Under the pieces are notes generated by a model, which ran no database searches, had not been told where the DNA came from, and was given only the letters and a program-made list of their open reading frames with translations. From assembly GCF_003334355.1 (NCBI RefSeq), contig NZ_QOWP01000030.1: a DNA stretch of 45,643 nt. The stretch is one strand, 5' to 3'. The translations under genes were made by a program, and so were the position numbers. Position 1 is the first letter of the stretch. Each line of letters opens with the position of its first letter. Of this stretch, positions 45,361-45,515 are shown piece after piece. Source of the DNA: Escherichia coli. Its GTDB lineage: Bacteria; Pseudomonadota; Gammaproteobacteria; Enterobacterales; Enterobacteriaceae.

Positions 45361-45436
45361 GGGTGATTAGCTCAGCTGGGAGAGCACCTCCCTTACAAGG
45401 AGGGGGTCGGCGGTTCGATCCCGTCATCACCCACCA
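45361..45436 (+). tRNA. valT: tRNA-Val (anticodon UAC)
   Basis: 76-nt GGGTGATTAGCTCAGCTGGGAGAGC...CCTTACAAGG...GGTTCGATCC...CCA. Confidence 0.97.
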
Positions 45437-45439
45437 CTC

Positions 45440-45515
45440 GGGTCGTTAGCTCAGTTGGTAGAGCAGTTGACTTTTAATCAATTGGTCGCAGGTTCGAATC
45501 CTGCACGACCCACCA
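45440..45515 (+). tRNA. lysW: tRNA-Lys (anticodon UUU)
   Basis: Identical to lysT; begins 3 nt after valT. Confidence 0.97.

Follow-up and report, generated by a model that had tools for sequence, protein, structure and literature searches.

A three-nucleotide Val-Lys tRNA junction in the lysT operon region of a non-K-12 Escherichia coli strain and its probable separation by RNase P

Results

Two closely abutting tRNA genes

The sequence analysed here, called the window, is a stretch of 45,643 nucleotides of Escherichia coli DNA. Its end corresponds to the cpoB-lysT region of a non-K-12 strain and is cut off 1 base past valZ; this last base lies inside the next CTC spacer, ahead of lysY. The cpoB gene ends at 44985, and four tRNA genes then follow in the expected order. 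The features of this region are listed below.

45150..45225, + strand: lysT, tRNA-Lys(UUU) with encoded CCA, first gene of the operon (ARAGORN; RF00005, 79.2 bits; identical to K-12 lysT)
45226..45360, + strand: lysT-valT spacer, 135 nt, with RtT-like repeat (RF00391 match; direct-repeat family D2)
45361..45436, + strand: valT, tRNA-Val(UAC) with encoded CCA (ARAGORN, anticodon tac; Rfam RF00005)
45437..45439, + strand: CTC spacer between valT and lysW (direct sequence reading: C45437, T45438, C45439)
45439..45440, + strand: putative RNase P cleavage site, C(-1)/G(+1) of lysW (K-12 mapping in PMC4176162, non-pairing leader, fold)
45440..45515, + strand: lysW, tRNA-Lys(UUU) with encoded CCA (ARAGORN, anticodon ttt; Rfam RF00005)
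45516..45566, + strand: lysW-valZ spacer, 51 nt (alignment with K-12)
45567..45642, + strand: valZ, tRNA-Val(UAC) (ARAGORN; RF00005, 65.9 bits)

ARAGORN and, independently of it, the Rfam model RF00005 (Infernal) give the same two genes, with the coordinates and the 3-nt spacing reported in a first-pass annotation of this DNA; the names valT and lysW used there are right by synteny (downstream of cpoB, order Lys-Val-Lys-Val). Against a gathering score of 29, valT reaches 65.9 bits (E=4.9e-14) and lysW 79.2 bits (E=1e-17). Further Rfam matches over the tRNAs (Plastid-ycf2, psbI-rps4 on the minus strand, and YrlA) fall far under their gathering thresholds and were rejected as tRNA-shaped noise. 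The raw sequence of the junction is ...CACCCACCA-CTC-GGGTCGTT..., or, in wider context, ...GTCATCACCCACCA CTC GGGTCGTTAGCTCAG.... The 3' CCA, which is encoded in the genome in all E. coli tRNA genes, occupies 45434-45436 in valT and 45513-45515 in lysW. Once transcribed, CTC serves both as a 3-nt 3' trailer on pre-tRNA-Val and as bases -3 to -1 in the leader of lysW. The valT gene is identical in sequence to the second Val copy (45567-45642) and to K-12 valT/valZ, lysW is identical to lysT, and the tRNA sequences of the window are those of the K-12 lysT-operon genes.

The predicted minimum-free-energy fold of 45361-45515 (-63 kcal/mol, z = -3.6) preserves the two acceptor stems, which are linked by 7 nt of single-stranded RNA, ACCACUC. 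Opposite the 3' end of lysW the leader forms only non-pairs: C(-1)/A73, U(-2)/C74 and C(-3)/C75. Since CUC is unable to pair with A73-C74-C75 of lysW, the cleavage site would not be occluded; the rule that a leader should not pair with the tRNA 3' ACCA comes from PMC10731613. The spacer has the traits of a junction separated by RNase P, being very short and free of an A/U-rich single-stranded site of the RNase E type, and that of an RNase PH-dependent trailer, with C directly after CCA (CCA-CUC); the same trailer is listed in PMC4176162.

The surrounding operon

The last 694 bases of the window have matches in all 5426 complete E. coli genomes of the collection, and strain A65EC is 100% identical to them; in A65EC, as in K-12 MG1655, the tRNAs lie between cpoB and nadA. 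In the 100% identical strain of locus L002, valZ is followed by CTC-lysY-lysZ-lysQ-terminator-nadA, so that all seven tRNAs are present and the full gene order from cpoB (ybgF) to nadA is Lys-Val-Lys-Val-Lys-Lys-Lys.

A consensus scan of 44600-45643 found neither a sigma-70-like or promoter-like site, so that the lysT promoter was not located, nor a terminator-like site on the + strand; one terminator-like site on the minus strand is at chance level. Just 3' of the cpoB stop codon lies a perfect 12-bp inverted repeat (44994-45027; ACACGACCAGAA / TTCTGGTCGTGT, 10-nt loop). As no T-run follows, it was not called an intrinsic terminator; the hairpin may be a transcript-end or stabilising element between cpoB and the lysT promoter.

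Several other RNA elements were observed in the window. The CpoB/ybgF intercistronic RNA thermometer (RF02782, 142 bits in Rfam) spans the pal-cpoB junction at 44085-44223. The sRNA ES036 (CssrF) has a gathering-level Rfam match of 75 bits at 5587-5629. Two tandem naRNA4 (CssrE) units, at 27359-27430 and 27450-27521, score at the Rfam threshold (59.5-59.8 bits) and are flanked by long + strand open reading frames (26027-27244 and 27610-28776).

Differences from K-12 and variation within E. coli

The window departs from K-12 in its spacers, which measure 135 / 3 / 51 / (3) nt against 135 / 2 / 149 / 3 nt in K-12. In the alignment, the valT-lysW spacer is CC (2 nt) in K-12 MG1655 and CTC in the window, one extra T being the sole difference between the window's Val-CTC-Lys unit and K-12 valT-lysW. 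The valZ-lysY spacer of K-12 is itself CTC (3 nt), and the 155-nt Val-CTC-Lys unit of the window equals K-12 valZ-CTC-lysY base for base. Three further point differences fall in the spacers; the base before valT +1 is T in the window and C in K-12. Judged by this alignment, the window carries an allelic variant of the K-12 lysT operon at the same locus.

The larger difference concerns the lysW-valZ spacer, where a 98-nt RtT-like segment of the 149-nt K-12 spacer (positions 1420-1568 of locus L001) is absent from the window. At either edge of the missing 98 nt lies a copy of the 18-nt direct repeat ATCCTGCACGACCCACCA: one is the tRNA-Lys 3' end, the other sits inside the RtT-like repeat. Breakpoints within this repeat are consistent with a repeat-mediated deletion or insertion. 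The RtT RNA family was described for the tyrT operon. In the window, RF00391 matches the lysT-valT spacer region (45157-45325) with 60.2 bits at a gathering score of 45, and the last part of the repeat there, ATCCTGCACGACCCACCA at 45308-45325, copies the tRNA-Lys 3' end. K-12 has an RtT-like element after each of lysT, lysW, lysY and lysZ, and one more match lies beyond the operon terminator.

How common these states are was counted in the 5426 complete E. coli genomes by megablast, with queries specific to each junction and no seed able to match without crossing the spacer. CTC junctions were found at 5404 places, spread over 5320 genomes, and CC junctions in 5208 genomes. From these counts, the usual state of E. 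coli is one CC (valT-lysW) and one CTC (valZ-lysY). The arrangement in the window, CTC at both positions and no CC, is a minority allele, carried by somewhere between about 84 genomes, the number with two CTC places, and 218, the number in which CC is missing. For the lysW-valZ spacer, a 32-nt query was used whose 28-mer seeds all span the novel junction. A Lys tRNA running directly into CTAATTA, with no RtT-like repeat, was found in 3132 of the 5426 genomes, with a maximum of 4 places in one genome; this makes the short lysW-valZ spacer a common one, and operon structure and copy number vary within E. coli. An earlier count with a 65-nt query (4479 at >=80% covered) was discarded, as it joined nearby pieces and was confounded. 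In some E. coli genomes three Lys genes lie under the same window-end query.

Loss of a Val-Lys unit by unequal crossing-over was considered as the source of the window's CTC and rejected, because the identical strain of locus L002 keeps all seven tRNAs. Either an indel of 1 nt or gene conversion from valZ-lysY would account for it better.

The spacer across Enterobacterales

Representative genomes of GTDB were scanned for a Val 3' end, 0-30 nt of any sequence and a Lys 5' end; the sample, and with it the length distribution, is conditional on exact K-12-like flanks and spacers of at most 30 nt. Val(UAC)->Lys(UUU) pairs were found in at least 128 junctions at at least 120 loci, in many genera of Enterobacterales. 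Among the 128 junctions listed, the spacer lengths are distributed as follows.

2 nt: 9 junctions
3 nt: 37 junctions
4 nt: 59 junctions
6 nt: 3 junctions
7 nt: 18 junctions
12 nt: 1 junction
17 nt: 1 junction

Spacers of 2-7 nt thus account for 126 of the 128 junctions among the matches listed, and none of those 128 has a spacer of 0 or 1 nt. CTTC (43), CTC (23) and CTTCTGC (15) are the top spacers in this set; among the same listed matches, 94 of 128 spacers consist of pyrimidines only, and Lys +1 is preceded by C in 114 of 128. Of the 37 listed junctions no more than 2.5 kb away from a cpoB homologue, 16 have CTC, which makes it the leading spacer there. In this sample the tight pyrimidine junction is an old, conserved feature, and the tight spacing is no chance event. 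The G-free spacer ending in C may have been kept because it is unable to extend the lysW acceptor stem via A73/CCA.

Discussion

Processing in K-12

Maturation of the lysT operon has been studied experimentally in K-12. Probes for the lysT leader and for the terminator both detect a species of more than 1100 nt, which shows that all seven tRNAs are co-transcribed (PMC4176162). The full-length transcript has a half-life below 0.5 min in the control strain and above 30 min in rne-1 rnpA49, and likewise when RNase Z, G and LS are lacking in addition (PMC4176162). When RNase P is inactive (rnpA49), RNase E cuts the long spacers only, and the valT-lysW and valZ-lysY dimers thus produced accumulate (PMC4176162). 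The same paper names RNase P as the sole endonuclease separating valT/lysW and valZ/lysY; in the sister valU operon, loss of RNase III, G, Z, LS or YbeY had no added effect (PMC4176162). RNA circularisation and sequencing placed an RNase P cut at the mature 5' end of lysW, and processing was found to run 3' to 5' after RNase P has removed the terminator (PMC4176162); this directionality was reproduced in vitro and is distributive (review PMC10731613). The spacers valY-lysV CUUC, valT-lysW CC and valZ-lysY CUC are named there and are not canonical RNase E sites, which are A/U-rich and single-stranded (PMC4176162). In rph-1 strains, Val tRNAs carry 1-2 extra 3' nucleotides that are gone in rph+; they were attributed to the C residues after CCA (CCACC, CCACUC), which inhibit RNase T (PMC4176162). 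More generally, a case has since been made that what makes RNase P essential in E. coli is its separation of polycistronic tRNA precursors (PMC7049720); we found no lysT-specific spacer data in that paper, whose Lys tRNAs appear in one table entry only.

Proposed processing of the window's junction

Because the window's unit is identical in sequence to valZ-lysY, the K-12 behaviour (dependence on RNase P, independence of RNase E, role of RNase PH) is expected to hold at its junction. Transcription from the lysT promoter would yield one precursor of about 1.1 kb with seven tRNAs. RNase P would remove the terminator and then cut at each mature 5' end in 3'-to-5' order. At the junction it would cut between C45439 and G45440, recognising the folded lysW body and its 3' ACCA, with the upstream tRNA-Val and CUC presenting merely a structured 5' leader. 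A single cut would so produce the mature lysW 5' end and tRNA-Val-CCA-CUC, whose CUC trailer would be trimmed by 3'-to-5' exonucleases, mostly by RNase PH, given that RNase T is inhibited by C residues behind CCA. The valT 5' end would be matured by a further RNase P cut at 45360/45361, and the lysW 3' end would arise once RNase P has cut at valZ, at an earlier step, and exonucleases have removed a 51-nt trailer. An RNase E site would not fit this spacer, given its shortness and its high pyrimidine content, so no other endonuclease is expected to contribute. The shorter lysW-valZ spacer (51 against 149 nt) gives lysW a different 3' trailer and might affect the local kinetics.

The first-pass annotation had proposed that a single RNase P cleavage releases both tRNAs. 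As far as the junction itself is concerned this agrees with the K-12 rnpA49 dimers, which point to resolution by RNase P with no other endonuclease (PMC4176162). Release of both tRNAs goes too far, in that tRNA-Val keeps its CUC trailer and has to be cut once more by RNase P, at the valT 5' end, and lysW needs the valZ cut and trimming of the 51-nt trailer. The event that the annotation named as speaking against its claim, a separate endonuclease acting before RNase P, is not borne out by K-12, where RNase E does not separate the pairs (PMC4176162). The experiment it suggested, mapping of intermediates in RNase P and RNase E mutants, had already been published for K-12 in 2014 (Agrawal, Mohanty and Kushner, Nucleic Acids Res, PMC4176162).

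Alternative explanations

An endonuclease other than RNase P (RNase E, RNase Z/BN or another enzyme) could cut at or just after the valT CCA and leave RNase P to trim only a lysW leader of 1-3 nt. There are precedents: in PMC8860583 the proline tRNAs proK, proL and proM are described as released by one-step RNase E cleavage right after CCA, and at the similar valY-lysV junction (ACCACUUC) weak RNase E cleavage or another endonuclease was left possible by the authors (PMC4176162). The K-12 valT-lysW and valZ-lysY dimers nevertheless accumulate without active RNase P, RNase E 'does not separate' them, the half-life of the lysT transcript in rne-1 rnpA49 exceeds 30 min even when RNase Z, G and LS are removed (PMC4176162), and CUC is no canonical RNase E site; we therefore hold this course of events to be quite improbable. 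Much less probable still is that valT and lysW come from separate transcripts and that there is no junction to process. EcoCyc listed the cluster as four transcripts, as noted in PMC4176162, but even that four-unit model keeps valT-lysW in one unit. A terminator and a promoter cannot fit in a 3-nt spacer, the consensus scan of 44600-45643 gave no promoter-like or + strand terminator-like site, the species of more than 1100 nt reaches both the 5' leader and the terminator probes, and RNAs spanning the junction (species X, VIA and I) have already been reported (PMC4176162).

A similarly negligible chance attaches to the idea that valT or lysW is a pseudogene or repeat relic, whose tight spacing would be of no consequence for processing. 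Relic copies of the tRNA-Lys 3' end do exist in the operon, for example at 45308-45325, and the locus has been reshaped by recombination among repeats. Against it, valT and lysW are full-length, fold as cloverleaves, score far over the Rfam threshold and show no difference from the window's other Val and Lys copies or from the K-12 genes encoding cellular tRNA-Val1 and tRNA-Lys. A cut by RNase P followed by RNase PH trimming is, in our analysis, very probably the best explanation overall for the window's junction.

Significance

A tight Val-Lys junction separated by RNase P is already known and ordinary; the present one is a textbook-level example of how RNase P separates polycistronic tRNA precursors, and our results are mostly confirmation. 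What is new is descriptive: the CC/CTC polymorphism, the presence or absence of the RtT-like repeat after lysW, and the conserved pyrimidine spacer of 2-7 nt in Enterobacterales. The residual value is comparative, as length and composition of the junction are tightly conserved across Enterobacterales, and the natural CC and CTC alleles offer ready-made substrates for RNase P kinetics on closely abutting tRNAs.

It is conceivable, though we rather doubt it, that the spacer is a selected processing element and not a mere leftover, given its length across Enterobacterales, almost always 2-7 nt and never 0-1 among the junctions listed, its G-free, pyrimidine-rich composition and its C at -1. If so, it would set the steric minimum for docking of RNase P where the leader is a folded tRNA, avoid extension of the acceptor stem with A73/CCA and channel the 3' end of tRNA-Val to RNase PH for maturation; processing rates would then differ measurably between the CC and CTC alleles of E. 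coli.

Comparison with known systems

One comparison is with RNase E-dependent operons such as metT, which share with the window multi-tRNA primary transcripts ending in encoded CCA. Another RNase E-dependent tRNA operon of E. coli is glyW-cysT-leuZ. Operons of the metT kind differ in having longer, A/U-rich spacers, where RNase E acts first and RNase P trims 5' leaders only, a scheme that PMC4176162 introduces as the generally accepted one.

Also comparable are valY-lysV (CUUC) and valV-valW (UCCU), which have, like the window, short pyrimidine-only spacers, encoded CCA and RNase P-dependent separation from 3' to 5' (PMC4176162); processing of valVW is distributive in vitro (PMC10731613). Both, however, have 4-nt spacers and belong to different operons, and the valV trailer begins with U, so that RNase PH is not specifically required for it (PMC4176162).

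K-12 valT-lysW is the orthologous pair by position and shares with the window its tRNAs and its 135-nt upstream spacer (3 substitutions in the aligned region), but it has the CC spacer, as in most E. coli, and a 149-nt downstream spacer with an RtT-like repeat. K-12 valZ-lysY, finally, equals the window over all 155 nt and lies in the same operon; its separation depends on RNase P and not on RNase E, and its CCACUC end is trimmed by RNase PH (PMC4176162). It differs in being the operon's second Val-Lys pair, where the window's is the first, and in its flanking spacers.
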